DNA of 64,000 nucleotides from a virus (lineage: Duplodnaviria; Caudoviricetes): the IMG/VR virus record IMGVR_UViG_3300028591_000171, positions 14,634-78,633 of that record. The stretch is one strand, 5' to 3'. Shown one piece after another: positions 5,511 to 58,695 of the stretch. The position numbers were made by a program, and so were the translations under genes. The notes under the pieces are model-generated. The model had not been told where the DNA came from, did no database searches, and worked only from the letters and a program-made list of their open reading frames with translations. How positions within the stretch are numbered: the first letter of the stretch is position 1; every line of letters starts with the position of its first letter.

Positions 5511-7043
5511 ATGCCAGGACGTTTAGTCAATTCACAGATGACTGGTGTCACCGCGTGGAGAGGAACTGTCACAAAGGACAACCACCTTTACAGCATGTTC
5601 CGCACTAACCCGCAGATGGCCAGTGATGTCATGACTGTCCTCATGAGCAGCATGCGTCTCCCCACCCTCGACAGCTACCTCTCCAAGGAGGTTCCCGTTC
5701 GCGAGTATGAGGACGACAGCGAGCTATTCTGGGACATCGTTACCTCCTCCAGGAGGAATATCCCCCTCGTAGAGGCGCGCCGTTGCGACGGCACCCCCAT
5801 CGAGGCCGCTAACGAGGACAATGTCGGTGTCGGTTTCGAGCCGTTCTACCTTGTCTTCCCCACTGATTGGTTCGCTCTCGGAGAGGTCCTCTGGGGCAAC
5901 ATGAACGAGGCCTATCCTGTTATCGTCAAGGAGGCTGGTCATGCCGAGGGAACCAACACCGTTTATCTTGTAGAGCCTTTCGGCGCGCATCTCGCCAACG
6001 GTATCCCCGCCGAGCGCCTTCTCCCCGGTGAGAAGTTCTCTTGGGGTTACGCTCCTATCGAGGACAACTTCTCCCGCAAGGTCGGTGACGTGCGTTTCAG
6101 CACTCCCGTCTCAATGCGCCAGGATTGGCAGAGGGTTCGTCTCCAGCACAAGATCGGTGGTCGCGAGCTTGGCAAGCGCCTCGCCTGTCATATCCCCGTC
6201 TCAAAGGAGGTCAACGGCAAGATGGTCCACACGACTGTCGACCGCTGGATCTACAACGTGACATGGAAGATCGAGGAGACATGGGCCGATTATAAGAACA
6301 ACGCCCTTGACCGTGGTGTCAGCACCCGTTTCGAGAACGGCGAGTATTCCAACTTCGGTCTCTCCGGTCTCGCCAACCGCCAGGGCTCCGGTTTCCGCCA
6401 GCAGATGGAGTCCGGTAACCAGATGTACTACACCAAGTTCACCATGGGTCTTGTCGAGGACGCCCTCTACGGGATCAGCGCAGGCAAGGTCGATTACGGT
6501 CAGCGCAAGTTCGTCATGAGGACTGGTGAGCGCGGAGCCATCCTGTTCAGCAGGGAGGCCAAGAAGGAGATGAGCGGATGGATTCCCATCTATAGCGTCA
6601 ACTCCCCGTCCTACATCACAAAGGGACCCGAGACCAACTTCACCAACGGCAACGCCGCCACCATCGCCGACCTTCAGGTCACCAAGTGGCTGGGAGCCAA
6701 CGGTCTCGAGCTCACCATCATGATCGATCCTTCCAAGGATGATATCCAGACCAACAAGGTCATGCACCCTCTGGGCGGAACCGCCGAGTCCTACAGGTTC
6801 GACATCTTCTATGCCGCCAACGAGGAGCAGCCCAATGTCCAGAAGTGTGTCGTCAAGGGTCAGCCCGAGCTTCGCGGCTACCAGTGGGGACCTTTCAGCA
6901 ACCCGTTCACCGGGGAGTTCAACAACAGCTCCGCCTCCTTCGACGAGGATGCCGCCGTCGTCCACTACAAGGCGACTCTCGGTCTGGTGATCTACGATCC
7001 TACCCGCTGTATCTCCCTTATCCCGGCGATCCTCCAGGCGTAG
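5511..7043 (+). CDS. Major capsid protein, crAss-like
   Basis: 510 aa with strongly biased codon usage. Segments (GEKFSWGYAPIEDNFSRKVG, RQGSGFRQQ, MRTGERG, NKVMHPLGGTAESYRFDI) resemble crAss-like capsid proteins as recalled; follows a scaffold. Confidence 0.88.
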   Translation: MPGRLVNSQMTGVTAWRGTVTKDNHLYSMFRTNPQMASDVMTVLMSSMRLPTLDSYLSKEVPVREYEDDSELFWDIVTSSRRNIPLVEARRCDGTPIEAANEDNVGVGFEPFYLVFPTDWFALGEVLWGNMNEAYPVIVKEAGHAEGTNTVYLVEPFGAHLANGIPAERLLPGEKFSWGYAPIEDNFSRKVGDVRFSTPVSMRQDWQRVRLQHKIGGRELGKRLACHIPVSKEVNGKMVHTTVDRWIYNVTWKIEETWADYKNNALDRGVSTRFENGEYSNFGLSGLANRQGSGFRQQMESGNQMYYTKFTMGLVEDALYGISAGKVDYGQRKFVMRTGERGAILFSREAKKEMSGWIPIYSVNSPSYITKGPETNFTNGNAATIADLQVTKWLGANGLELTIMIDPSKDDIQTNKVMHPLGGTAESYRFDIFYAANEEQPNVQKCVVKGQPELRGYQWGPFSNPFTGEFNNSSASFDEDAAVVHYKATLGLVIYDPTRCISLIPAILQA

Positions 7044-34043: not shown

Positions 34044-37000
34044 TTAGCAGATATCTAGTTCGTTAAGAATATTGTCTATGGTATTGATTACAGATTCGGC
34101 TGAGTCTGAAGATATTCCTTTCCTGTTCATGAGATCAACCAACGCGTCTGTGGGTCTGTTCGCCAGAATCCAGTTGGCGGTTTGTATGATGAGGTTATCC
34201 ATGGCTGACGCCGGGTTTATGCTGGCCTTTTCATCCGATTCCATCACATCATATATCTCATCATAGACATCCTCTTCCATTGAGTCGATCACTTTGTCAG
34301 ACAATGTGTAGGACCTGTATGATTCCCTGGCTCCAGATAAAGGATACATACGCTCACCGAACAGCTCGGCTATTTCCTCTTTACTCGCTTCCCCGTGGAG
34401 TTTCCTTTTTGCGATTGAAATGATATCTCCGATCCTGACCGGTTGCCAGGCTCTATTCCCGCTTCTCTCAGCATCCTCAGGATTCTGTCCGCCATCGTCT
34501 GGCTCATTTTCGTTTTCTCTTCCATTTGATAAACTATTTATAACATTATAGACATCATAATCACTTATATTATCCTTTATGATAAAGTTGGCTGCTACCT
34601 TGTCTGACTTTATTAATCCCGCGCCACTCAATTCGCCCATGCTGGACTTAACTGTGTCTATTCCATTCATCATTGACGCTCTCAACGCTGTCATATCCGA
34701 AGGGTTGATATCTACGAAAAACCGCAATTCTTGCCTATTCCCATTGTATTCCCATTCCAGATGTGTTTTATTAGCGGCTGATATGACGCTTTCTTTATTC
34801 TGGGCGTATGCCTTATTATTGAGCTTCACGACAACCTCAACGGCGTTACATTCCTTTATATCTGATGTGTAAGTCTTTACTACAGGATTAATTGGTTTGT
34901 CGCTCAACGCATCCATTATGGCGGCGGTCTTGATAGCCTCACGATGCTGATCCATGGCGGAACCGTTTGGCTTGAGGTTTATGGAATACGTCGGTTTCCC
35001 GTCCTTAACCATTCTCTCAACCTGCCCATCTGACATTCCGAACAGGCTGGCTATCTTACTAATCCTCTTAAGGTGTCTTCTGCTCTCCAGGAATGCCGGC
35101 TCTCTATATGCCAACGGATCACTGGCTAATGCGTTCGGTATAGGGACCTCGACGTTATCGTCACCATAAGGGTTGGTTGATATGAATGTCCCGGAATATG
35201 TGTCGTCGTTGACGTTGGAATTTAGATACGCGGCGAATCCGCTTTCTTCAGCGTCATCTTGCATAGGCTCTATCGCGCTTGTCTCGTCTGATGACAGATT
35301 AGGGTCTGGGGCTTGTTCGCCCGTGTTGGCGAAAAGGCTCTCTCCATTATATACATCACCGAGTTTCACATATTCCAACATCTGGTTTGGTATACCCATT
35401 GGATCAACCATATCGACGCTTACAAGCAATTTATAATCATCGCCTTTCTTCACCCTTTCAACAGAGGTGTTGTTCACGAGGAAGAAATTACCGTCAACGT
35501 TTATCACCGGCATCGTTATGGTCAACTCGTTTTCACGTCCAGATATCCAGTTCTTTATCTTACCACCGAGTTTCTCATCTATCTCAAGGACAATTGTCTG
35601 ACCACCCTCAACCTCAGCCTGTGAGAATGTGACGACCTGTCTCTTCGGCTTGTTCTCGAAATACGGGACTATGCCTTTATCCCTTTGTGAGTTATTAAGG
35701 CACACTAAAGCCGTCAACTCGAACATGTCTTTTTCAGACATGGATGTCTTGTCGGCGTCAAAGAACGCTCTTGTGTAATTCGGTATCGCCTCCTTTATCG
35801 CCAACGGCATAACGGATATAGGTGTTGTGTTACTGAATGACGTCGACCTTGCCAAGAAATGTTTAGTTATATTTATGACAAAATCGTGTGTCTGAGGATA
35901 CCTCAAAAGGTCAGCCCAGTCTTTTTGGAACATCTCAAGCTCAGGTCCCCTCAGGTAATTGATATCTGTTTTCAACATACCGAATTGTCTGTAACCATCT
36001 TTCGAATCGAGATGACCTATACCCTGTATGAACGAGTTATTCTTTATGACGGTATTATAGAACGTCTCATCACTCTTTTTAATATCATCAAGGGTGTTTG
36101 TGTAGTATTCCTCGAAATCGGTTGTATAGAATTTCACTGTTTCCGGATTAGTGAAATCCTCTATCCTGTTTTCGCCAAGGAACAGCAAATAACTCTTATA
36201 CCCTTCGTATAATGTATTTAACTTGTCAACATTGTCTCCGGTCGTATCGCTGTCAAGAATACCGAGTTTCCTTGCCGCCTCAAAGAACGTCTCATTATAC
36301 GTGTGCATATTCTCGAGGATGATCTGGTCCGTCATTTCCTGTTCACCGAGGATAACCCTTCCCACATGAGGGAACATCGTGCAAAGCTTTCCGAACTCAT
36401 CCTGTGTGAATTCATCAGATATTGAGATGTTATCAGGTAGCTTTATTGTACTATTCTCGCTGTTAAGGTTATTGACGAGGCGTTCAATTTTCTTGCGGGC
36501 TACAAGCCTGTCGAAAAATGACGAGCCTTTCATCGCGGTCATTGAGTTGTATCTTGCGAATGAGTCCAGATTCCTCACTTTCGCCTCTTTACCTCTGAGC
36601 GTATCAAGGACTTGAAGTATTTTAAGCTTGTCGTATAATGTCTGGCTTTCAGGATCACTAATGTTTCTGACGAGATCGGAATAACGTAACGTGATATTCT
36701 GATCATGTTTAACGTCATTGATTTTAGCTACAAAATCCGTTTGCCAATTTTCCCATGACATGTTATCAGGTTTCTCTGTCTCGGCAAGCTCACTCAACAC
36801 ATCATCAATGGCGCTATCCATGCCGCCATGTCCGAACGCTGAGCTGATATTTATCTTATCCATAACTCGCCTTACGACAGGCTGAGCTATAAACATCCTC
36901 GCGACATCGCTTGATATACCAAGCCTATGCATGAGTATCAGGATAGGCATTGACTGTTGCGTTATGTTGAGCCTGTATAGAGCCGCATCCTTCGCGGCGT

Positions 37001-40000
37001 CTGCCGAAGCTCCCACATATTTTCCTATCTCGGCGCTGATTAACTTGTTATCCATATCGTTAATAGCGTCAAGTGTCACAGCGCCGCTAATTCTTTTCTC
37101 TGTTTGATGCTCGGGGTCTGAGTCATTTATGACTTTGAACGATTCTGTCACTGATTTGTCACTGCCCTCTTTGAATAACAGGCGTGTCGTGTTCTCTATC
37201 CTGCCAGAGGATACGCCTTCGTCATTATATACGGATATGAACGCGTGGGCTGTGACACCGACAGCGGCTATACCTATCATCTTGCTGGCATCCATATTCT
37301 GTTTCCTCAACAAAACGTCTGTTTTGGGGTCCATAAGATCCATATCCTCGACATCCTCGCATGCCGATTTGAGCCGTGATTTGCTCATCCCATCAAGGAT
37401 GTCCTTGTCGTATCCGTTCGCAAGAAGAGTAACGTAATACGACATCGCGCTCAAGTCATCAAAATCGCCAGGACGGAATCCCTCAAGTATTCCTGAGTTT
37501 GAGCCTAAAGCAGCCCATTGCAGGTCGAATATCTCCTTATCAACATCATAATCATCAGAACCATCGATAGGTCTCAATTCGACAAAATCAGTATCTATAT
37601 CAAAGTCGGCTCCAGTGAACAGAGTTAGCTCTTTAGGATACTTGGCAACGCTTCCGGCCCATGATGGGGTGAATCTCTTGATGCGGCATTTCATTATGGA
37701 GTATTTCATCTCCGTAGGGATACGGTAACAGATAGCGTCGAATGCGGAGTCTGGTACGACCTTATGGATCTCATCCATGTTCCAAGTCCCGTCGCTATTG
37801 AGGAACCTGTCGACACCTCCATCCGCCCTCTCGAGCATCCGAAGCACATAGTCAGGCATAGGAGCCTCTATCTCGAAATATTGATAGTTGCCGTCATTGT
37901 CAAATACTATACGTAGGTCGTCGGCGCTGGCCCATGACGTCGCCTGCACCACAACGCCGCCATTTGTTTTCTCCTTATAGTATGATTTTCTTATCTTCGA
38001 GTAGAGCATTGCCTCGACAGAAAGCTGCTGGCTCGGATCGTCAAGAGGGAGGACAAACTGGTCGACACCATCCCTGTTCACTATTGATATCGAACGTCTC
38101 ATATCAGACGTGAATCGCTGGTCTGACGCCATCGCAGACTTTAAAGTGTATGACAATCTGTGTATCCTGCTCGAATGCGGCATGTTAAGCCCGAGACTCC
38201 TCCTGAACTCTTTTTCGGAATTCATTGTCTTTTTGCTCAGCGCTTTGAAATACCTGTTTTTCAGTTCTTTGCCTGTTATCTTTTTACCATTAGGCATCAC
38301 GCAGGTCTCGTCATCCTTGATGTTGTTGACGCATAGGATTTTCATTTGGGCGCCAAGTGGCTGCGCGTTATGTTTGAAGTGCTCAGGTTTCTCCTGTACT
38401 ATCTTATAATCCTCTACATCATATTCAGTGACAGCTACTGGATTATCAGCGCGTCTAACCTTCTTGCCATCTTTAAGCACATAATTCCCGTTCTTGTCAG
38501 TCACATATAATGCCTCACGTAGAGCCTTTAATGTATCTTCAGCCGATAGCCCTTCGAGTTCTATCGCGTCATCATTCCCGCCGATCTTTACGGCTGAGTC
38601 GAAATTAGCGGTATCAATCCCTGTCAATTCATTATCCTCAGCTGTCTCCTCCAGGAATTTGGCTATCGCCTCAGCCTGTGAGCCAAGTTTCCCTTTTTGC
38701 TGGAACGCCGTTATGTATATCAGGGCATATTCTGAGTTCTTATGTTGCACAGGAACAGTTATCTGTCCGTCACCACGACCAGCCCTGTTCATGTTGACCA
38801 TTGAATAGACGAAAGGCTTTTGTGGCTGACCGAACACATGGAGATAGTCGTATATGTCGAGTTGTTTATTATTCTTTATCCTCTGATAGACAGCCTCGTC
38901 AGTATATATTTTAACTTCCTTCCCGTTTATTGTCGTGACACCATTGATGTCCTCGTCTCTTGAGTTTGACCTCGTCCATTTCCCCAGGCCAACCATTCTC
39001 TTGCGCAACCCTGTCAATCCTGTGAAAGCCTGTCCATCGGTAGCGTCAAATTTGGTGAGCGACTTCAGCGTGTTATCGACGGCCTTCTCCAAGACCGCTC
39101 TTTCGTTGTTGTCCGTTATTTTTTCGAGTTGCTTCCTGAGCGCTGATTCTATAGCGTCGTATGACGGGGCTTTTATTTTCTTTGTCCTTATTGTTATTGA
39201 CCTGTATTTCCCGTCAGTCACTCTCGAGCCATGTATTTTAGCTGTCGGGTCTATGGGATATCCTGCGGATACGACCTGCGCGTTACGTTTCTGGAAGTTG
39301 GTGGTGTTCTTATAGAACGCCAGGTCAACATCGAATATTTCCGACATATTGGCTTTAGCCAGCCAGTTATTGTAAACGAATTCCTCGATGTCATTCTGGA
39401 AATTCGCGAGTTCCATATAATATCTGTGAACTCTCGTGTCTTTGCCGTAAGTCTCGTCGGTGTATCCGTCTTTCAGAGCCATCTGTTTGGCTGCCTCAGA
39501 GCTGAATTCATATAACCTCTTCGTATAACCTATATCACCGCTGTGCCATTCCATCATATTGCCTATGAGGTATTTCAGCGTATCAATCTTGATGTTGCCA
39601 TTATCGCCGGCGTTAATCGTCTTCTTCTCATAGGCTCCGATGCTCTTCATGTAATCAGAGAATTTGTCACGCAACTCTGACATGTAGTCATGGAACACCT
39701 TTTTGTATTCAGAACTGGCCTTGGGCGTTATCACTCGTACAGGTTTGGTTGACAGATGAGAGTTGAAGATTCTGTCAACAACATATTTCCCCAATTCCGA
39801 ACCTTTCTCTATCTCGTTGTTGATAAACTTGCTCATGAAGAACGAGGCTCCGGTGTTGCGGAATATATATTTACCGTCTTTCACAACATCGTTGATTGAG
39901 ACTTTCTTCTTGTCTCTCATCTTATTGATGACAGCCTCTTTCTCCGGGGTGTTTATTTCTATATCGTAATTGTCTACTCTCGTGCCGGTTCCAAACGCCG

Positions 40001-42455
40001 CGAATCTAGCTACATTCTCGGCTCTTCTTATCTCTTGTGAGAAGAAATCAACGGCCTTATCTGCTATTATGACATGATAATTATCTTTAGCCCAACTGAC
40101 AGAACCGTCAATATCCTCAATATTGTTATTTGAATATCTTCTACCGCGAATGAGTGAGTTCCTTGGTTTGTCTGACGCTATCAACGATCTGTACCAAGCC
40201 GTCCCAGGCATCTCGCCAGCCTGGTTGTGATAGTCGTTCATTATGCTCAACGCATAAGTCAGGTCGGATAATTCAGTGTAATCCTTCCCATTTACTATTG
40301 GCTGCTCGGCGTATTCTATGATATTGCCGTTATTATGGTATATATCCTCAAGCCAATCCGAGTAGAAATGTATGTCTTTATCAGCTTTATCCTCATTCGG
40401 TTTAATGAACCACAGCGTATCCTTGCCGTATTTGCTTTCTATATACTCACGCACTTTTTGCCTGTCGGTGTTTTTCAGTCTTGATATTATCGTGCCGATT
40501 GATGACGGGTTATTTCTCGAATAATATGATTTCCCGTTCATGTAGGCGGCGGACTCCTGCGAGTCGGTATCAACTGATGTTATCAGGTTTATCAGGTTTG
40601 AATATCCGTTTACTATTTTCCTGGTATATTGCCTTGTCGAGGCGTCTTTCCTCATAGACATGGGGTTGGTTACGGGAGTGTCCGGTATAGAACCATCCTC
40701 AATCGCGTCGCCCCATTCTATAAGTGATCTCATGATTGAATCAGCTTCCCTCTGTAATTTGAGTATCTGATTCCCAATAATGGTTGTGTTGTTCAGCCTT
40801 GTTTGGTTGTCATGTTTAGTGTTGTCATAATTACCAGTCCTTGAATACGCGTGTATCGCAGTCTTTGACATATCAATGCCTAAAGCCTTTAATATGTTTG
40901 ACAACTTTTTGGTGGCGTCTTCTATCAACTTGTTCACCTCCTCAGCTGACGCGCCGCTATTTGCCATGCCTAACGCGTTCCTTACTATACCTTCAACCGA
41001 CTTGTCGTCTTGACGTATTCTACCGACGGGGGAGGATAATTGTTTTCTTAGCTGGCGTATATTATCGAAACTGATAGCTGTATTCTCGAACATCGGCCCA
41101 GACATGCTTGCGAACATGCTCCTGACCTTGTTCATCATCCTGTCATATTTCCCTCCTGTATTGGCGTCCCTGTTTTTGAAACACATGTCACCATTATTGG
41201 CGGATGTGTATGTCGTCCTGAATCTTGTGAACGGTTTGTAAACAGACTGGAAGAACAATGTTCTCAATTGCTCTTTTCTGTCAGAGGACATGTCGACGCC
41301 ATTCATGTCAAGCGCGTCATTCGTGTCAAGCATCTGGATAATCTGGGTCATCCATGGGTAGACCTCTTGCTTGCTTCTGATAGCGTTAAAAACCTCGTCA
41401 GAGTTGGCACAATTGTCACATATCTTATGCAGGATATTCAAGGCCTTTGACACTGATATGTATGTCGGCAACCCGAACCCGAACTGGTCAGTCCTGAAAT
41501 TCCCGTTGCTGTCTATATCCCTGCAATTAGCGAGGAGTATTTTTACCTCGGGGACTATTTTGGAATACACCGATTTGTTCTGGTCGGACACGCTGAACAG
41601 ACTGACAGGCATTGTCTCCTTCTCGACGTCATCGTCATCCTCAGGCCCATCATTCTCGTCATCTGTGTCATTCCTTTCAGCGGATGTTGATGTGGACCCG
41701 CTTGCCTCGCTTGTCTCATTAGGGTTCACTTTTATTCCCTCGTCTCTGAAAAGATTACCACCGTACATGTAAATCATGGTACGGAAATTATTTATGGCGG
41801 TCTTTAATTCTGATGCCAAGTCAGAATTACCATCTTTCTCAAGTTCGGCGATCCTGTCCTTGAATTCCTCTACTATAGTCGAGATTATATATCTGTTGGC
41901 TTTAGGGTCATTGTAGTATAAAGCCCTGCTGTTTTGCTTGGATATACCATTCTCGTATCGCTCGTTTCGGTCCGTGTCTAATATTGTTATAAGCTCAGAT
42001 ATCCTGCGGCACATATACTGTCCGAGGAATTCCATTCTTTTAGGGCTCTTAAACCCCTTAAGCAGTGACGCTATTTTAACTGACGATATCTTGCTCAGGT
42101 TGACAACATCCTTAATGTCGTCTTTATAGTCAATCAGATCACTCACAATCTCGTCATTGACGTCGCGCTCCAAAATCTCTCGCAAGTCATCTTTTATATC
42201 CGCGAGCTTTGAACCTCCTATATACCCGAATATGTCTGATGATTTTATCAGCTGTTCTGTATATGTTTTTAACGCGTCATTAAACTCTTGATATGACTCA
42301 AGATCATCCACTGTCATCTTATCGTAATCGAGAGCGTTATTATTGCTCTTTGCGATATTTAGGATATTCCTTGCCTCTTTGTCGGATATCCTATACTTTT
42401 TTGCCACTTGCTTAGCGAGCGGATGGAACGTAGGAATGCACCACTTTTTTGTCAT
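34044..42455 (-). CDS. Virion-packaged DNA-dependent RNA polymerase, crAss-like single-chain double-psi type
   Basis: 2803 aa. Catalytic GADFDIDTD (DFDID at 37593-37607) preceded by YRIPTEMKYS; also NFQKRNAQ and DATDGQAF motifs. Confidence 0.88.
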   Translation of the reverse strand: MTKKWCIPTFHPLAKQVAKKYRISDKEARNILNIAKSNNNALDYDKMTVDDLESYQEFNDALKTYTEQLIKSSDIFGYIGGSKLADIKDDLREILERDVNDEIVSDLIDYKDDIKDVVNLSKISSVKIASLLKGFKSPKRMEFLGQYMCRRISELITILDTDRNERYENGISKQNSRALYYNDPKANRYIISTIVEEFKDRIAELEKDGNSDLASELKTAINNFRTMIYMYGGNLFRDEGIKVNPNETSEASGSTSTSAERNDTDDENDGPEDDDDVEKETMPVSLFSVSDQNKSVYSKIVPEVKILLANCRDIDSNGNFRTDQFGFGLPTYISVSKALNILHKICDNCANSDEVFNAIRSKQEVYPWMTQIIQMLDTNDALDMNGVDMSSDRKEQLRTLFFQSVYKPFTRFRTTYTSANNGDMCFKNRDANTGGKYDRMMNKVRSMFASMSGPMFENTAISFDNIRQLRKQLSSPVGRIRQDDKSVEGIVRNALGMANSGASAEEVNKLIEDATKKLSNILKALGIDMSKTAIHAYSRTGNYDNTKHDNQTRLNNTTIIGNQILKLQREADSIMRSLIEWGDAIEDGSIPDTPVTNPMSMRKDASTRQYTRKIVNGYSNLINLITSVDTDSQESAAYMNGKSYYSRNNPSSIGTIISRLKNTDRQKVREYIESKYGKDTLWFIKPNEDKADKDIHFYSDWLEDIYHNNGNIIEYAEQPIVNGKDYTELSDLTYALSIMNDYHNQAGEMPGTAWYRSLIASDKPRNSLIRGRRYSNNNIEDIDGSVSWAKDNYHVIIADKAVDFFSQEIRRAENVARFAAFGTGTRVDNYDIEINTPEKEAVINKMRDKKKVSINDVVKDGKYIFRNTGASFFMSKFINNEIEKGSELGKYVVDRIFNSHLSTKPVRVITPKASSEYKKVFHDYMSELRDKFSDYMKSIGAYEKKTINAGDNGNIKIDTLKYLIGNMMEWHSGDIGYTKRLYEFSSEAAKQMALKDGYTDETYGKDTRVHRYYMELANFQNDIEEFVYNNWLAKANMSEIFDVDLAFYKNTTNFQKRNAQVVSAGYPIDPTAKIHGSRVTDGKYRSITIRTKKIKAPSYDAIESALRKQLEKITDNNERAVLEKAVDNTLKSLTKFDATDGQAFTGLTGLRKRMVGLGKWTRSNSRDEDINGVTTINGKEVKIYTDEAVYQRIKNNKQLDIYDYLHVFGQPQKPFVYSMVNMNRAGRGDGQITVPVQHKNSEYALIYITAFQQKGKLGSQAEAIAKFLEETAEDNELTGIDTANFDSAVKIGGNDDAIELEGLSAEDTLKALREALYVTDKNGNYVLKDGKKVRRADNPVAVTEYDVEDYKIVQEKPEHFKHNAQPLGAQMKILCVNNIKDDETCVMPNGKKITGKELKNRYFKALSKKTMNSEKEFRRSLGLNMPHSSRIHRLSYTLKSAMASDQRFTSDMRRSISIVNRDGVDQFVLPLDDPSQQLSVEAMLYSKIRKSYYKEKTNGGVVVQATSWASADDLRIVFDNDGNYQYFEIEAPMPDYVLRMLERADGGVDRFLNSDGTWNMDEIHKVVPDSAFDAICYRIPTEMKYSIMKCRIKRFTPSWAGSVAKYPKELTLFTGADFDIDTDFVELRPIDGSDDYDVDKEIFDLQWAALGSNSGILEGFRPGDFDDLSAMSYYVTLLANGYDKDILDGMSKSRLKSACEDVEDMDLMDPKTDVLLRKQNMDASKMIGIAAVGVTAHAFISVYNDEGVSSGRIENTTRLLFKEGSDKSVTESFKVINDSDPEHQTEKRISGAVTLDAINDMDNKLISAEIGKYVGASADAAKDAALYRLNITQQSMPILILMHRLGISSDVARMFIAQPVVRRVMDKINISSAFGHGGMDSAIDDVLSELAETEKPDNMSWENWQTDFVAKINDVKHDQNITLRYSDLVRNISDPESQTLYDKLKILQVLDTLRGKEAKVRNLDSFARYNSMTAMKGSSFFDRLVARKKIERLVNNLNSENSTIKLPDNISISDEFTQDEFGKLCTMFPHVGRVILGEQEMTDQIILENMHTYNETFFEAARKLGILDSDTTGDNVDKLNTLYEGYKSYLLFLGENRIEDFTNPETVKFYTTDFEEYYTNTLDDIKKSDETFYNTVIKNNSFIQGIGHLDSKDGYRQFGMLKTDINYLRGPELEMFQKDWADLLRYPQTHDFVINITKHFLARSTSFSNTTPISVMPLAIKEAIPNYTRAFFDADKTSMSEKDMFELTALVCLNNSQRDKGIVPYFENKPKRQVVTFSQAEVEGGQTIVLEIDEKLGGKIKNWISGRENELTITMPVINVDGNFFLVNNTSVERVKKGDDYKLLVSVDMVDPMGIPNQMLEYVKLGDVYNGESLFANTGEQAPDPNLSSDETSAIEPMQDDAEESGFAAYLNSNVNDDTYSGTFISTNPYGDDNVEVPIPNALASDPLAYREPAFLESRRHLKRISKIASLFGMSDGQVERMVKDGKPTYSINLKPNGSAMDQHREAIKTAAIMDALSDKPINPVVKTYTSDIKECNAVEVVVKLNNKAYAQNKESVISAANKTHLEWEYNGNRQELRFFVDINPSDMTALRASMMNGIDTVKSSMGELSGAGLIKSDKVAANFIIKDNISDYDVYNVINSLSNGRENENEPDDGGQNPEDAERSGNRAWQPVRIGDIISIAKRKLHGEASKEEIAELFGERMYPLSGARESYRSYTLSDKVIDSMEEDVYDEIYDVMESDEKASINPASAMDNLIIQTANWILANRPTDALVDLMNRKGISSDSAESVINTIDNILNELDIC

Positions 42456-48191: not shown

Positions 48192-48668
48192 CTAAATGTA
48201 GTTGTCAAGTCTTGAAGACTCTATCTCGCCTTGGCGGAACGCCTCCTTGTCATTCTCCGAGGCGAAAACCATATTCCCCACGTCATCGGGGTTGGCTTCC
48301 GGCAGGTAATATCCCTGATCCTCAGCCCATCTCCTGAACGCGTTTATGGCCCTTGTCATCTCGTCTGTGGTGAGGTCGGCGGAACTGCGTATATACTGTA
48401 CTCTCATCCCGGTAAGCTTGTCCACATCCTCCCTGATGAATATATCCGGATTGGACATTATCTTGAAGTATACCTCCTTCGAGTATTTCTCGGTAACTCC
48501 GGTCTCTATGGCGAGTATCCTGCAGAGCACATGAAGGTATGAGTTCTGGTTGAGCGAACGCCTTGACTCGTCAACCAGACTCGCGTTCTTGCATTTCTTC
48601 TCGAGAAGCCTGTTGGCCCTCTTGACGAACTGTTTCCTGTGTAAAGGGTTAGTCAGATCGTAATTCAT
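48192..48668 (-). CDS. NinB/YbcN-like recombination-associated protein (tentative)
   Basis: RRSLNQNSYLH and RSSADLTTDEMTRAI...YYLPE resemble the NinB family signature. Confidence 0.5.
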   Translation of the reverse strand: MNYDLTNPLHRKQFVKRANRLLEKKCKNASLVDESRRSLNQNSYLHVLCRILAIETGVTEKYSKEVYFKIMSNPDIFIREDVDKLTGMRVQYIRSSADLTTDEMTRAINAFRRWAEDQGYYLPEANPDDVGNMVFASENDKEAFRQGEIESSRLDNYI

Positions 48669-48901
48669 TACAGTACTTTCACCTCGCTATAAAAATAGTC
48701 ACCCCATCCTGCGGAGTCCTCTAACGCGTCCAGAAGAGTCCTGAAATCTTTCTCCGTGTCCATCTTATAAGTCCTGTAATCACCCTCGACCTTCCCGGAG
48801 TTGATGGCTCTTATCGCGCCTCTTGTAGTATGCTCATTCGCATACGAGCAAGCCTCTGTCCCATAAAAGACAGTGACCTTAAATTTATTAAGATTGTCCA
48901 T
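48668..48901 (-). CDS. Hypothetical protein
   Basis: 77-aa ORF; its stop overlaps the next start. Confidence 0.7.
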   Translation of the reverse strand: MDNLNKFKVTVFYGTEACSYANEHTTRGAIRAINSGKVEGDYRTYKMDTEKDFRTLLDALEDSAGWGDYFYSEVKVL

Positions 48902-48907
48902 ATTTTC

Positions 48908-49155
48908 GCGGAATAATACGCGGAATGACAGAACCGTCTCCGTAACTCGGTGGAAGCAACTGGATTCGAACCAGTGACCCCCTGCTTGTAAGGCAGGTTA
49001 CAATCATACCGCGATTGAATAACATCTATCGCTAAGTTACTAATTTTTAATTGATTAACAAACAAAAATCCAAATTTGTTTTTGTTTATTTTTTCTTTTT
49101 CTTTTTGATGTGCCTTCCAGATACGTGAGACACTATGCGGAATTGTTTGCAGAAT
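48908..49155. mobile_element. attP-like site: tRNA-Val 3' half flanked by paired arm-type repeats
   Basis: GCGGAAT at 48908 and 48920; GCGGAAT/GCAGAAT at 49137 and 49149; tRNA fragment and AT-rich tracts between them; adjacent to the integrase gene. Confidence 0.8.
48949..48998 (-). tRNA. 3' half of tRNA-Val(TAC) only; not a functional tRNA gene
   Basis: Minus strand reads A CCTGC CTTACAA GCAGG GGGTC ACTGG TTCGAAT CCAGT TGCTTCC ACC: perfect anticodon and T arms plus the 3' acceptor strand. The 5' acceptor strand (expected GGAAGCA) and D arm are absent. Confidence 0.92.
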
Positions 49156-49183
49156 TTTGCTATCTTGCCGAAAAGTAAAAACA

Positions 49184-50434
49184 ATGGCGATTACAAACTT
49201 ATATCTCGACATGAGGGGCAGAGCCAATGACGGCAAGGGCAGCATCCTCATAACCATCTATCACAACAGGACGACATCTACAATCCCGATGAAAATCAGG
49301 GTGTCTCCAGAGAACTGGGACGGCAACCATATCGTCAGGATGCGCGAGGCTGACATCCTCAACGCTCATCTGGCGGAGAAAAAGGCGTCAATAGACATGG
49401 CGATAGCGGGACTTTCCCTGCGTGATGATTTCGAAAGCATGACAGCCACGCATATAAAGAACCTCATCACTGACAAGAGGAGCGTCGACAGCTCCAGGTC
49501 TATGGTCAAAAGCCTGTTTGAGGAGTATATGGCCTCGGATTTGAGCGACGGCACAAGAGAGATATACAAATCCACGTTGGGTAAGGTCCTGTCATTCGGA
49601 GGGCAGTCTATGAGAATAGGACAGATAGACGCTAATTGGCTCATACGTTTCGACAGATATCTCGCGAAGACACAAGGCGTGAACGGAAGGGCAATCTATC
49701 TCCGACATCTGCGTGCCGTGTGCAATTACGCCAGAAAGATAAAGGTTATGTCAACTTATCCTTTCGATGATTTCAAGATAAGGCAGGAGCAGACACGCCA
49801 CAGGAACATATCTGTTGATGACCTTAGAAGATTTCTGGGATATAAGGTGACTTCCGAGCAGGAGATGGCAAGGGATTTCTTTATGCTTATGTTCTATCTT
49901 GTCGGATGTAACATCGTGGATCTTCTCACGGCAAAGCGGACCAACATAGTCAATGGCAGGTTCGAGTACATAAGGAGAAAGACACACAAGGCGTATTCCA
50001 TAAAGATAGAGCCGGAGGCGGAAAGGCTGATAGACAAATACCAAGGTGTAGACTGGCTTCTGTCGCCGATGGACCATTACGCCAGATACAAATCTTTCGC
50101 CCGCATGGTGAACAAGAACATCAAGGAGATAGGTGACGTGTCATGGGAAATGGTCCCGGTTGAGGATGACCTTTTCGCCATGCCAAAGCTGGAGAAAAGA
50201 ATTATCCCCGTCATACCTGAGGTGACCACCTATTACGCCAGACACACATGGTCGACTTTAGCTTATGACATAGGCATTCCTATCGATGTGGTGTCACAGG
50301 CGCTCGGTCACTCAGACGGCAACAGGACAACCCTCATCTATGTCAAGCGTGACCAGAAGAAGGTTGACGACGCCAACAGACAGGTTATAGACTATTTACT
50401 TGGACTTGACAAACCTGCCCTTATCGTCCCGTAG
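49184..50434 (+). CDS. int: Tyrosine recombinase / phage integrase, Bacteroidota type
   Basis: N-terminal arm-binding-like LYLDMR...IYH...W, SAM-like core (TREIYKST, YLRHLRAVCN), catalytic YIRRKT, YYARHTW, ALGHS, TTLIY. Start moved to ATG 49184. Confidence 0.92.
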   Translation: MAITNLYLDMRGRANDGKGSILITIYHNRTTSTIPMKIRVSPENWDGNHIVRMREADILNAHLAEKKASIDMAIAGLSLRDDFESMTATHIKNLITDKRSVDSSRSMVKSLFEEYMASDLSDGTREIYKSTLGKVLSFGGQSMRIGQIDANWLIRFDRYLAKTQGVNGRAIYLRHLRAVCNYARKIKVMSTYPFDDFKIRQEQTRHRNISVDDLRRFLGYKVTSEQEMARDFFMLMFYLVGCNIVDLLTAKRTNIVNGRFEYIRRKTHKAYSIKIEPEAERLIDKYQGVDWLLSPMDHYARYKSFARMVNKNIKEIGDVSWEMVPVEDDLFAMPKLEKRIIPVIPEVTTYYARHTWSTLAYDIGIPIDVVSQALGHSDGNRTTLIYVKRDQKKVDDANRQVIDYLLGLDKPALIVP

Positions 50435-50582: not shown

Positions 50583-50996
50583 TTAGTTGTTTAATATGAT
50601 TGTTGAGAAAACGTTCCATATTTTCCTTGTCTGGTAATCGTTGGTCTGCATATAGTCGGCGTGCCTCCTCAGCCCGACTATCACAGTGGCGTGGTTAAAT
50701 CCGCTTACCCTTCCGATGTCGCTCAGGCTATATCCCTCATTGAAAAGCATATACCACACGCATCTTCTCCAGATCACTGTCACCGCGTCACGTTTCTTGT
50801 CCTTTATGTCTATACCGGATACCTGTTTGACCGAGTCACGTAACTCGTCATATCTTCTTTGTATCGGCGGAAGCTCCGGTATCCTTGGCAATAACGCAGT
50901 GACAGTCTCTATCGCCTCATATACGTCATCAGGCAGACTGTTCTCGCGGTTCTTGCCGAACCTTTCCAATGTTGTACCCGCTTGAGCTAATGTCAT
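50583..50996 (-). CDS. DnaA domain IV-like HTH DNA-binding protein
   Basis: KKRDAVTVIWRRCVWY...YSLSDIGRVSGFNHATVIVGLR fits the SLxxIG...HxTV pattern. Confidence 0.6.
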   Translation of the reverse strand: MTLAQAGTTLERFGKNRENSLPDDVYEAIETVTALLPRIPELPPIQRRYDELRDSVKQVSGIDIKDKKRDAVTVIWRRCVWYMLFNEGYSLSDIGRVSGFNHATVIVGLRRHADYMQTNDYQTRKIWNVFSTIILNN

Positions 50997-52017: not shown

Positions 52018-52134
52018 TCAATGGTAATTATCTCTTCTATTCCTTTCTGCTACCTTGGCTGACCAGATAGCGAGGACAATGACAATGGCAACTCCTGTCA
52101 CAAGCCCTCCGATAAACACTAATAGACTATTCAT
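52018..52134 (-). CDS. 38-aa single-TM peptide (not in the ORF track)
   Basis: Manual translation MNSLLVFIGGLVTGVAIVIVLAIWSAKVAERNRRDNYH; ATGA overlap with the upstream gene. Confidence 0.6.
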   Translation of the reverse strand: MNSLLVFIGGLVTGVAIVIVLAIWSAKVAERNRRDNYH

Positions 52135-52508
52135 TTCTTTTCCTCCTTTGGTATCTCAGGCATCGGCATCCAGTATTTGACTCCAGGGATGTTCCAGCCG
52201 CTAAAATCTTCGCAATATTCCTTGTTAACGACGTGTCCAAATGCGATGCGATATAAAGGTTCTATCCTCACTTCATTCCACTCGTCAAGAAGCACTATAA
52301 CCTCCTCGTCCATTGGTGGCAAGAACTCATTCACTGAGTGCCAGCAGAGGTCTTTCTCGGCTTTAGGCCACAAAGCCTCCGCAACCATCCTCGCTGTTGT
52401 GTGTCTCAAATTCTCTATTGATGAGCAACATCCGGGTAATATACCAAAGGAGTCAAATAACCACTGGTCTATCTCATCAAGTGTTGTGGGGTAATCTACT
52501 TTACTCAT
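52131..52508 (-). CDS. DUF551-like early phage protein
   Basis: WHSVNEFLPPMDEEVIV...VKYWMPMPEIP signature. Confidence 0.65.
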   Translation of the reverse strand: MSKVDYPTTLDEIDQWLFDSFGILPGCCSSIENLRHTTARMVAEALWPKAEKDLCWHSVNEFLPPMDEEVIVLLDEWNEVRIEPLYRIAFGHVVNKEYCEDFSGWNIPGVKYWMPMPEIPKEEKK

Positions 52509-57578: not shown

Positions 57579-57865
57579 CTCGTCTCCTTTTTAAGTTCAT
57601 AGACATAGCCGTCTTTGACTATCACGCAGTTATCATTATCAGAAAGCTCAACAACATTTGGTTTATGGATCTGCTCGACAACAGGTCCTCCGAAAACGCC
57701 AGAGCGGTGAACAACAAACGACAGGTCGTTGTTGGCCCTTGTGACACGGCAGCAATGCCTGACTATAGACTCGTAATAATTACGTGTCGCTATGCGGATG
57801 GTATTAAGCCGATATTTCGCAACCGGCTTACTCAACCAACCGAATATCTTTCCAGTCTTACTCAT
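57575..57865 (-). CDS. Hypothetical protein
   Basis: 96 aa, ATGA-coupled to the next gene. Confidence 0.65.
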   Translation of the reverse strand: MSKTGKIFGWLSKPVAKYRLNTIRIATRNYYESIVRHCCRVTRANNDLSFVVHRSGVFGGPVVEQIHKPNVVELSDNDNCVIVKDGYVYELKKETR

Positions 57866-58190
57866 TGATTACGGATTGCAGGTTAACTTTCTGCAGGGTC
57901 AACACATACAATTCGTTGTCCTTGATCCTGTAGCCGAGATTGTACAGATGCTTTATCATATCCCTCGGCTGGAAATCATTTAAGGTCTTCTCTTTTTGAG
58001 GGGCAACCGGTTTAATTTCCTTTGCTTCAACTTCATGAGAGTTGGCGATGGTGTTCATTCTTGAGAATCTGGCTGTTATCGTCCCCTTAGGGATTCCCGT
58101 AAGCTCGGATATCTTACCGTATGTGTAACCCTCTTTCTTGAGCTTGACGATCTCAGACATCTCTTGTTTGTAATTCGGTCTTCTGTGCAT
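57858..58190 (-). CDS. HTH DNA-binding protein
   Basis: IVKLKKEGYTYGKISELTGIPKGTITARF. Confidence 0.65.
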   Translation of the reverse strand: MHRRPNYKQEMSEIVKLKKEGYTYGKISELTGIPKGTITARFSRMNTIANSHEVEAKEIKPVAPQKEKTLNDFQPRDMIKHLYNLGYRIKDNELYVLTLQKVNLQSVINE

Positions 58191-58329: not shown

Positions 58330-58695
58330 CTATATCTCTATCAGCTTGAACTCGATTCTCGGATTAACCTTGGCGAGAAACTTGTCAGCGACTATTTTGA
58401 CGCAACGATTGTCATTCTTTATCGTCTTCGTGTGCTGGAGGCAATCTAGTATGATTTTCAGTGAGTTGTCGAGGTCGTGAGACATCGAGGTGAAATATAC
58501 CCTGAGATGCAACTCGAAATAACCCGTTATCATCATACCCCTGTATTTGCCGACCTGCATATAGAACGAGTCCTCATAAGCTCTCAAGCCAGTAGTCTTG
58601 CCTAATGAGCTGTGACCTCCTATCTTGATTATCCTGTAGGAATTGGATTTGGATGGACATTGTCCGAATATCGTCTGCCAATCGTGCTCAACCAT
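58330..58695 (-). CDS. RusA-like Holliday junction resolvase
   Basis: GQCPSKSNSY, FELHLRVYF, HDLDNSLKIILDCLQ, IKNDNRC, NPRIEF. Confidence 0.7.
   Translation of the reverse strand: MVEHDWQTIFGQCPSKSNSYRIIKIGGHSSLGKTTGLRAYEDSFYMQVGKYRGMMITGYFELHLRVYFTSMSHDLDNSLKIILDCLQHTKTIKNDNRCVKIVADKFLAKVNPRIEFKLIEI

Follow-up and report, generated by a model that had tools for sequence, protein, structure and literature searches.

A tyrosine integrase gene and, next to it, a partial copy of a tRNA-Val gene flanked by two pairs of short direct repeats are located between positions 48907 and 50434 of the viral DNA studied here. The window, that is, the whole stretch of 64,000 nt that was analysed, corresponds to bases 14634-78633 of the 78.6-kb linear IMG/VR record IMGVR_UViG_3300028591_000171, whose completeness is estimated at about 80%. 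An original prediction, made from the letters alone, had interpreted this segment as the integrase and the phage attachment site (attP) of a temperate crAss-like phage. How crAss-like phages persist in guts for years without an obvious lysogenic cycle is the question that such a locus addresses.

The tRNA-Val(TAC) piece is located at 48951-48997 and is read on the minus strand, with the letters CCTGC-CTTACAA-GCAGG GGGTC ACTGG-TTCGAAT-CCAGT TGCTTCC A. It corresponds to tRNA positions 27-73 and comprises the anticodon arm (TAC), the variable loop, the T arm, the 3' acceptor strand and the discriminator, and neither the D arm nor the 5' acceptor strand can be read in it. ARAGORN identified zero tRNA genes in the window or in the remaining 14.6 kb of the record, and therefore the piece is not part of a phage tRNA array. 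Based on its sequence and on its match to a host-type tRNA gene described below, we take it as the attP core. Written on the plus strand, the anticodon stem-loop (48981-48997) is CCTGC / TTGTAAG / GCAGG, a palindrome proposed to supply the core-type sites, with a 7-bp overlap at 48986-48992. The original prediction, which had given a 50-nt core and a gap of 185 nt, was essentially right; the piece is 47 nt long by our reading and lies 186 nt from the integrase start codon.

Two direct CGCGGAAT repeats (48907-48914 and 48919-48926, plus strand), 12 bp apart, constitute the putative P arm to the left of the core, and TGCGGAAT and TGCAGAAT, also 12 bp apart, constitute the putative P' arm to its right (49136-49155, plus strand), 29 nt ahead of the integrase ATG. 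These are proposed to be the arm-type sites of the integrase. The consensus YGCRGAAT has 10 matches in the window, as many as chance would give. Four of them fall in a 249-bp segment around the core, all with plus-strand orientation, and form the pairs 48907/48919 and 49136/49148, each exactly 12 bp apart. Between the core and the P' arm, an AT-rich hairpin followed by a T run (49054-49107, plus strand; inverted repeats I2/I3) occupies the place where relatives have a terminator hairpin after a plus-strand tRNA piece. The scan of the att region for sigma-70 promoters and terminators gave nothing informative, and this hairpin was not called because the scan demands G+C-rich stems.

The integrase gene (49184-50434, plus strand) encodes a protein of 416 amino acids (aa) of the Bacteroidota IntCTnDOT type, as indicated by Pfam, PHROG, a profile of homologues and AlphaFold. 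The start codon listed for it is the TTG at 49157; the ATG at 49184 fits the N-terminus of all homologues (MA.T..YLD.RG), and it is this start that gives the 186-nt gap mentioned above. Within the 425-aa open reading frame (ORF), Arm-DNA-bind_5 is matched at residues 24-90 with 29.8 bits (cut-off 22.6), and the SAM-like core-binding domain Phage_int_SAM_5 is matched with 46.1 bits (cut-off 22.3), while PHROG 1 (integrase) is matched with an E value of 5e-27. When the profile of 23 homologues is aligned with archaeal XerA, R353, H376 and Y386 of the C-terminal box fall into place; these residues, together with R264 and K266 (R264-x-K266), are invariant in the 23 homologues, and Tyr350 takes the place of the first His. 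The AlphaFold model has a predicted local distance difference test (pLDDT) score of 85.6, with a three-strand sheet at the N-terminus (E3-9, E19-27, E30-40), and its best fold match is full-length lambda Int (1Z1G, 1Z1B) at 14-16% sequence identity. The Pfam domains, PHROG 1, the invariant residues and the fold support the statement of the original prediction that the tyrosine integrase is complete. A sister phage, 97% identical, was recovered from another sample as a left part (L329) and a right part (L169). The integrase genes of the window and L169 (91% nucleotide identity) differ at a proportion of 0.35 of synonymous sites (pS) and 0.016 of nonsynonymous sites (pN), giving a pN/pS of 0.045; judged from the codons, the integrase is under strong purifying selection.

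Then, is this arrangement conserved? We read the contexts of 11 relatives, two of which (L323 and L324) lie on contigs that begin within the core and therefore display the right-hand half only. The complete order is found in the other nine (L002, L162, L164, L290-L294 and L315, on contigs of 79-100 kb), namely NinB (minus strand), repeat pair, tRNA 3' part, hairpin, repeat pair and integrase (plus strand). The left repeat pair of the relatives abuts the start codon of the leftward gene, the right pair lies 25-45 nt ahead of the integrase ATG, and the distance between the pairs is 220-233 bp where measured. The P-arm repeats are kept as TTTGCAGAAT pairs with 12-bp spacing in these nine relatives and in the sister L329, and the P'-arm repeats, which all relatives retain, are identical in L169 though the spacers differ. 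Integrases of 52-60% identity were found on many contigs of 90-103 kb. A megablast search of the locus against GenBank phages gave no match; the layout recurs in more than 10 independent contigs from IMG/VR, ENA and Logan, which contradicts the chimeric assembly that the original prediction had named as a possible objection. Furthermore, the window and L169 share about 94% identity over the 215-nt att spacer, where the core and the P' repeats are unchanged, against a 35% synonymous difference in the adjacent gene, and therefore the whole site is constrained. At the left border, some 380 bases that the window lacks, including an ORF, lie between the P-arm repeats and the homologue of the neighbouring 77-aa ORF in the sister phage (L329:80-460), and therefore this border of attP is a variable spot.

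The tRNA copied into the frame differs among these phages. Cores of tRNA-Ala(TGC) are present in L162, L164, L290-L293, L315 and L323, a core of tRNA-Pro(TGG) in L294, and cores of tRNA-Val(TAC) in L002, L324 and the window. Whichever tRNA is copied, every relative's core has (C/A)TGC-N7-GCA, which covers the anticodon stem and loop, and on the strength of this shared pattern the two halves of the stem are proposed to be the core-type sites and the 7-nt loop to be the overlap. A set of retargeted attP sites would be expected to look like this, with the frame constant and the core tracking different host tRNAs.

The orientation of the core is also peculiar. In every relative, the tRNA piece and the integrase are read from the same strand, and the 3' end of the piece faces the integrase. 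In the window phage and the sister (L329+L169), the tRNA piece alone is on the opposite strand; neither the repeat pairs nor the hairpin has changed orientation, nor has an 8-nt flank (CAATCATA) that L162 also has. The inversion of the core relative to the repeats and the integrase is new and unlike every relative examined. It is plausible for a palindromic core to be flipped in this way, and tRNA restoration would be preserved in the flipped layout because the inverted piece is still the 3' part of the gene. Integration with a canonical core would give the order tRNA-terminator-integrase, the usual island layout. With the flipped core, the rebuilt tRNA would instead be next to NinB and would read in the direction of the leftward genes, leaving the integrase at the opposite end of the prophage, beside the 3' piece displaced from the host gene. 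The letters ATCATACCGCGA at 49003-49014, immediately right of the core, resemble, imperfectly and in inverted orientation, the P-arm repeat (TCGCGGAAT), and they may be a trace of rearrangement or an additional binding site. A simple inversion, with the CGCGGAAT repeat and the partial inverted copy (49006-49014) as its ends, was considered as the origin of the flip and rejected, since the spacings fail to recreate the canonical layout.

A candidate host site was found by a looser metagenome scan, in which two bacterial contigs, L197 (from an 88.8-kb contig) and L216, were identified that carry a complete tRNA-Val. This tRNA consists of GGAAGCATAGCTCAGCTGGTTTAGAGCA followed by the core and has the same base as the phage at 46 of the 47 positions, 42 of them contiguous. 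Only position 68 differs, which is C68 in the window phage (48956) and T68 in the host-type gene, whose 3' half ends in CCAGTTGTTTCCA. The gene begins with GGAAGCA, just as the original prediction had deduced for the host tRNA-Val, and this host 5' strand pairs with TGCTTCC of the phage. A Bacteroidota-type TAnnTTTG box is present upstream and a terminator downstream, and the neighbouring genes are bacterial (beta-lactamase-family serine hydrolases, CinA, a BspA-type leucine-rich repeat protein and an MNT/HEPN pair). The tRNA-Val of L197 and L216 is an unoccupied site, and the match between the phage core and this tRNA is far beyond chance. The sister phage has the host-type T68, and all of its recovered core bases equal the host gene, so that the host-identical stretch reaches up to 49 nt when 48998 (position 26) and 48950 are counted. 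The host-type TGTTTCCA is carried both by L329+L169, in the inverted layout, and by L324, whose integrase is 60% identical and whose core has the canonical orientation. It should be noted that the original prediction had missed the inversion of the core, the start codon at 49184 and the difference between C68 and T68.

Positions at which assemblies break provide further evidence for such a tRNA in the same samples. For Logan assemblies, we take k to be 31. In SRR8436538, where the integrase and NinB are identical to those of the window, the contig with NinB stops at 48986 and the one with the integrase begins at 48969 (positions that assume no indels), and therefore a second sequence shares exactly 48957-48998. 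This interval corresponds to tRNA positions 26-67, the 42 nt that are identical between the phage and L197/L216. In SRR28378877, L329 starts at the window-equivalent position 48979 and L169 at 48969, which gives a shared stretch of 49 nt, as expected because the sister phage has T68. The contigs L163, L323 and L324 likewise start inside their own cores. These breaks show that a co-occurring sequence with the identity limits of the host tRNA is present in the same samples.

Several other tRNA-Val genes were encountered in these searches. A degenerate tRNA-Val pattern with the acceptor TGCTTCCA gave more than 120 matches in species genomes, mostly in Chitinophagaceae and Flavobacteriales and a few in Alistipes/Rikenellaceae. 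The best of them, L062, has two compensatory mismatches and was rejected; its genome is without an integrase homologue, and in its family 4 of 132 genomes come within three mismatches. Two phage-sized metagenome contigs, L173 (Ga0256405_10000902, 89.6 kb) and L187 (OCTW013410485.1, 97.6 kb), carry complete tRNA-Val genes in which the anticodon and T arms are the same and the acceptor stems differ. On the metagenome contig Ga0209164_1015182 (L225:2747-4809), a complete tRNA-Val(TAC) has an integrase gene divergently upstream (32.5% identical to that of the window) and a second integrase fragment co-oriented downstream (33.5% identical), which may represent tandem or nested elements at one tRNA. 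In addition, partial tRNA-Val(TAC) 3' parts that start from about position 24-27, with no 5' part upstream, occur in two Chitinophagaceae genomes (L079 and L087) and in three metagenomes (L174, L186 and L239), with distant integrase homologues nearby in L239 and L174. These partial copies look like putative att remnants of other elements with the same sublocation.

The anatomy of the locus, its conservation, the selection on the integrase and the match to a real co-occurring host tRNA are observations. We consider it likely that 48907-50434 constitutes a complete site-specific integration module of a Steigviridae-like crAss phage, with a lambda-type heterobivalent integrase and a tRNA-Val attP. 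In the mechanism proposed, which covers the binding sites, the crossover point, and actual integration and lysogeny, the N-terminal domain of the integrase would bind both YGCRGAAT repeat pairs in the P and P' arms, and the core-binding and catalytic domains would bind the palindromic anticodon stem of the tRNA-Val copy. Strand exchange with the tRNA-Val(TAC) gene of a Bacteroidota host, where the same sequence stands, would then occur at the 7-nt anticodon loop. With the 3' two thirds of the tRNA (positions 27-73) coming from the phage and the 5' third from the host, integration would leave an intact tRNA, and in this hybrid G5.U68 would become G5-C68. Among IMG/VR proviruses of 20-60 kb, integrases 35-37% identical to that of the window occupy provirus ends, directly after complete tRNA-Gly genes, and the nearest GenBank integrase is that of Bacteroides phage BS-TP2 (37% identity).

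The genome around the module is that of a real member of Crassvirales. The crAss-type major capsid protein (5511-7043, plus strand) is 51% identical to the capsid of Bacteroides phages DAC15/DAC17, and DAC15 is classified in Crassvirales, Steigviridae, Asinivirinae. Close capsid homologues bear Pfam Crass_capsid and are followed by CrAss_Ring_3_4 proteins on their contigs. A protein of 2803 aa (34044-42455, minus strand) is a homologue of the putative RNA polymerase of crAss001 (tblastn, 23% identity over 64% of the query, E 5e-64). Both genes bear out the claim of the original prediction that a crAss-like genome with an RNA polymerase is concerned, and the family assignment is provisional. 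An identical integrase sits on an 89.3-kb contig. The phage has a G+C content of 46.7%, compared with 47.0% in L216 and 55.9% in L197. It was also noted that the capsid cluster P0233 (capsid 78% identical) includes dozens of contigs of 50-200 kb; the longest, of 150.6 kb, exceeds one crAss genome and could be a concatemer or a prophage with host flanks. A 108.6-kb contig belongs to P0210.

Phage genes are present on both sides of the module, and the attP state assigned to it by the original prediction holds. To the left, a NinB/Orf-like recombination mediator (48192-48668, minus strand; PHROG 72, E 6.9e-14; Pfam NinB weak) is the constant neighbour of the att site in all relatives, e.g., L162, L164, L315 and L002. 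It is followed by a 77-aa ORF with no function assigned (48668-48901, minus strand), with 6 nt between its start codon and the P-arm repeats. Small leftward genes follow on the right of the integrase, including the gene of a 137-aa protein (50583-50996, minus strand) with a weak DnaA-C-like helix-turn-helix (Pfam Bac_DnaA_C, E 1.2e-5, below the cut-off). This gene is a conserved right neighbour, also in L164 and L169, and may have a regulatory role. The NinB-like, DUF551 and RusA-like genes (48192-48668, together with 52131-52508 and 58330-58695) give the leftward early block the flavour of a lambdoid 'nin region'.

However, several results weigh against an integrating phage, and they are collected here. 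Neither attL, attR nor an integrated copy was found in species genomes, JGI metagenomes, IMG/VR or the contexts of homologues, in a limited search whose short-read graphs cannot resolve a core of 42-49 nt. The 120 closest integrase homologues (52-97% identity) all lie on contigs of at most 103 kb, the sole NCBI match among the homologues has attP-type neighbours, and a search of IMG/VR for junction patterns returned known attP forms only. The contexts of P0001, P0002, P0005, P0007, P0021, P0033 and P0099 are likewise all of attP type or on contigs broken in the core. No repressor, excisionase or antirepressor was recognised by PHROGs and Pfam among the 20 neighbouring ORFs, where weak helix-turn-helix matches only were seen, at 50583-50996 and 57858-58190; the missing lysogeny genes are weak evidence because most of the neighbouring genes are without annotation. 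The exact 47-mer core had 0 matches in 185,579 species genomes, IMG/VR and JGI metagenomes, a null result explained by C68 in the phage versus T68 in the host. Among 401 sampled Bacteroidales species genomes, no tRNA was within one mismatch of the core, and therefore the host is narrowed no further than Bacteroidota. The assembly breaks prove only that a core-sharing sequence is present, and an empty bacterial site (attB) fits them as well as attL/attR. The flipped core is restricted to the window phage and its 97% sister, and its working state is putative. As for the integrase itself, the catalytic domain Phage_integrase scores 25.4 bits, just under the cut-off of 27.1, and inspection of the box I motif (RD..L.FYL.G.N..DL) tentatively places N243 at the canonical position of the first Arg. 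In CTnDOT-type integrases, the first catalytic Arg is often absent from its usual place, and a downstream Arg substitutes for it (PMC8138268). Consequently, of the temperate phage announced by the original prediction, the integrase/att module in its attP state stands, while the lifestyle was not borne out by any attL/attR, integrated copy, repressor or excisionase; the attP/integrase reading is supported, and temperate life is probable but unproven.

Could the module be conserved without stable lysogeny? It could serve multimer resolution or circularisation in a Cre/P1-like manner, or integration could be rare or abortive, for want of maintenance functions, with persistence due to other means such as a carrier state or the phage-plasmid lifestyle that has been proposed for crAssphage. 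Such an explanation would account for the lack of any integrated copy in more than 100 related contigs or in NCBI genomes and for the fact that no repressor or excisionase is recognised near the integrase, and Carjivirus communis is an example of persistence without integration (10.1101/2024.03.20.585998). However, a resolution site would have no reason to copy the 3' parts of host tRNAs, to switch among tRNA-Ala, tRNA-Pro and tRNA-Val in relatives, or to agree at each base with a host tRNA that co-occurs with it, and arm-binding integrases are typical of integrating elements (PMC8138268). We therefore regard it as unlikely, though it survives better than the other alternatives.

A passenger origin is more doubtful still. 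The int-att segment would then stand apart from the phage's own biology, either as a small integrative cassette or because a conventional temperate Bacteroidales phage had recently passed it on. The nearest named integrases do belong to ordinary temperate Bacteroides phages, at 37% identity or less, and integrase divergence within the clade (52-60% identity) exceeds capsid divergence (76-100%). However, in every relative the segment is fixed in the same place, with NinB on one side and the same small leftward genes on the other, and neither a second att copy nor a cassette border was seen. Its retention across the clade, with integrases down to 52% identity and strong purifying selection, argues for long residence and use, which leaves this explanation improbable. 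It is highly improbable that the tRNA piece is a decayed phage tRNA gene or that the contig is chimeric, the closeness to the integrase being accidental, for although Steigviridae often carry tRNA genes (PMC13503771) and the IMG/VR record is linear and incomplete, the whole record is without a tRNA gene, the piece begins exactly at the anticodon stem with conserved repeats flanking it, and independent assemblies of two other samples, as well as many full-length relatives, contain the same junctions.

The integration module may have a wider distribution. We can tentatively suggest, stopping somewhat short of calling it probable, that a clade of Steigviridae-like crAss phages (capsids at least 76% identical, more than 100 contigs) is truly temperate, using an IntDOT-type integrase to enter tRNA-Ala, tRNA-Pro or tRNA-Val genes. 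The core would be swappable between tRNAs and even flippable with function kept, because the core sites are the palindromic anticodon stem. If true, this would overturn the view of crAss-like phages as unable to lysogenise, and the clade would yield a family of related integrase/attP/attB sets for Bacteroidota. The locus itself is a concrete and testable case, with an attP of 250 bp, a candidate attB (the tRNA-Val of L197/L216) and an intact integrase. In addition, one scaffold with different tRNA cores, one of them flipped, constitutes a natural series on how arm-binding integrases change target and orientation.

According to a 2023 review, crAss-like phages are seemingly strictly lytic, and true lysogeny is unsupported by evidence (PMC10136315); the prototypic crAssphage persists without integrating (10.1101/2024.03.20.585998). 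Integrases as such are not so rare in the group as the original prediction supposed, since catalogues list them for some Crassvirales. For example, a mouse virome catalogue of 2026 found integrase/excisionase modules enriched in Intestiviridae and the Zeta group and rare in Steigviridae (PMC13503771), to which the nearest named relatives of the window phage belong, and 12 crAss-like predicted prophages were given in a pig study (PMC12454387). The accessible parts of these two catalogues offer integrase annotations and lifestyle calls, with no att-site analysis and no flipped core, and our literature search found no paper joining Crassvirales with attP analysis. Dulem virus 40 (L327, PP511379.1, 63298-69512; a 73-kb circular genome from lemur faeces), which GenBank classifies to the class Caudoviricetes only, has an annotated integrase 29% identical to that of the window. 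It lies just after a giant ORF and between leftward small genes, the same gene layout as in the window. The temperate Bacteroides phages BS-TP2 and Bacuni_F1/F2/F4 have integrases 32-37% identical, but they are non-crAss phages of 30-60 kb.

By domains and motif, the integrase resembles the IntCTnDOT subgroup (IntDOT of CTnDOT, IntN1 of NBU1 and IntN2 of NBU2), with the same domain set of Arm-DNA-bind_5, SAM-like core-binding and catalytic domains, an invariant R264-x-K266 and, by inspection, N243 apparently at the place of the first Arg. NBU1 and NBU2 insert at the 3' ends of tRNA-Leu and tRNA-Ser genes and have arm-type sites. However, the IntCTnDOT elements are conjugative or mobilisable, whereas the module of the window is part of a crAss-type virion genome of about 95 kb and its core spans the anticodon stem to the 3' end, not the 3' end alone. 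The attP of lambda Int (POP') follows the same logic, with arm sites on both sides and inverted core sites around a 7-bp overlap. Unlike in lambda, all four arm repeats point in the same direction here, the target is a tRNA gene, the core is flipped, and no IHF, Xis or Fis sites are known.

A parallel to the target is the anticodon-loop class of tRNA integration sites of phages and islands, which was reportedly set out by Williams in 2002 (Nucleic Acids Res 30:866). There, attP likewise carries the anticodon stem-loop to the 3' end, with a symmetric stem and a 7-nt loop, and the gene is restored. In the IMG/VR proviruses at tRNA-Gly, the integrase comes directly after the complete tRNA gene. 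The crossover position is putative in the window phage, and its integrase would lie at the prophage end distal to the rebuilt tRNA, unlike in its relatives. Taken together, this is a mechanistically ordinary tRNA-targeting module of the Bacteroidota IntCTnDOT type, which is notable for its setting in a crAss-like phage.

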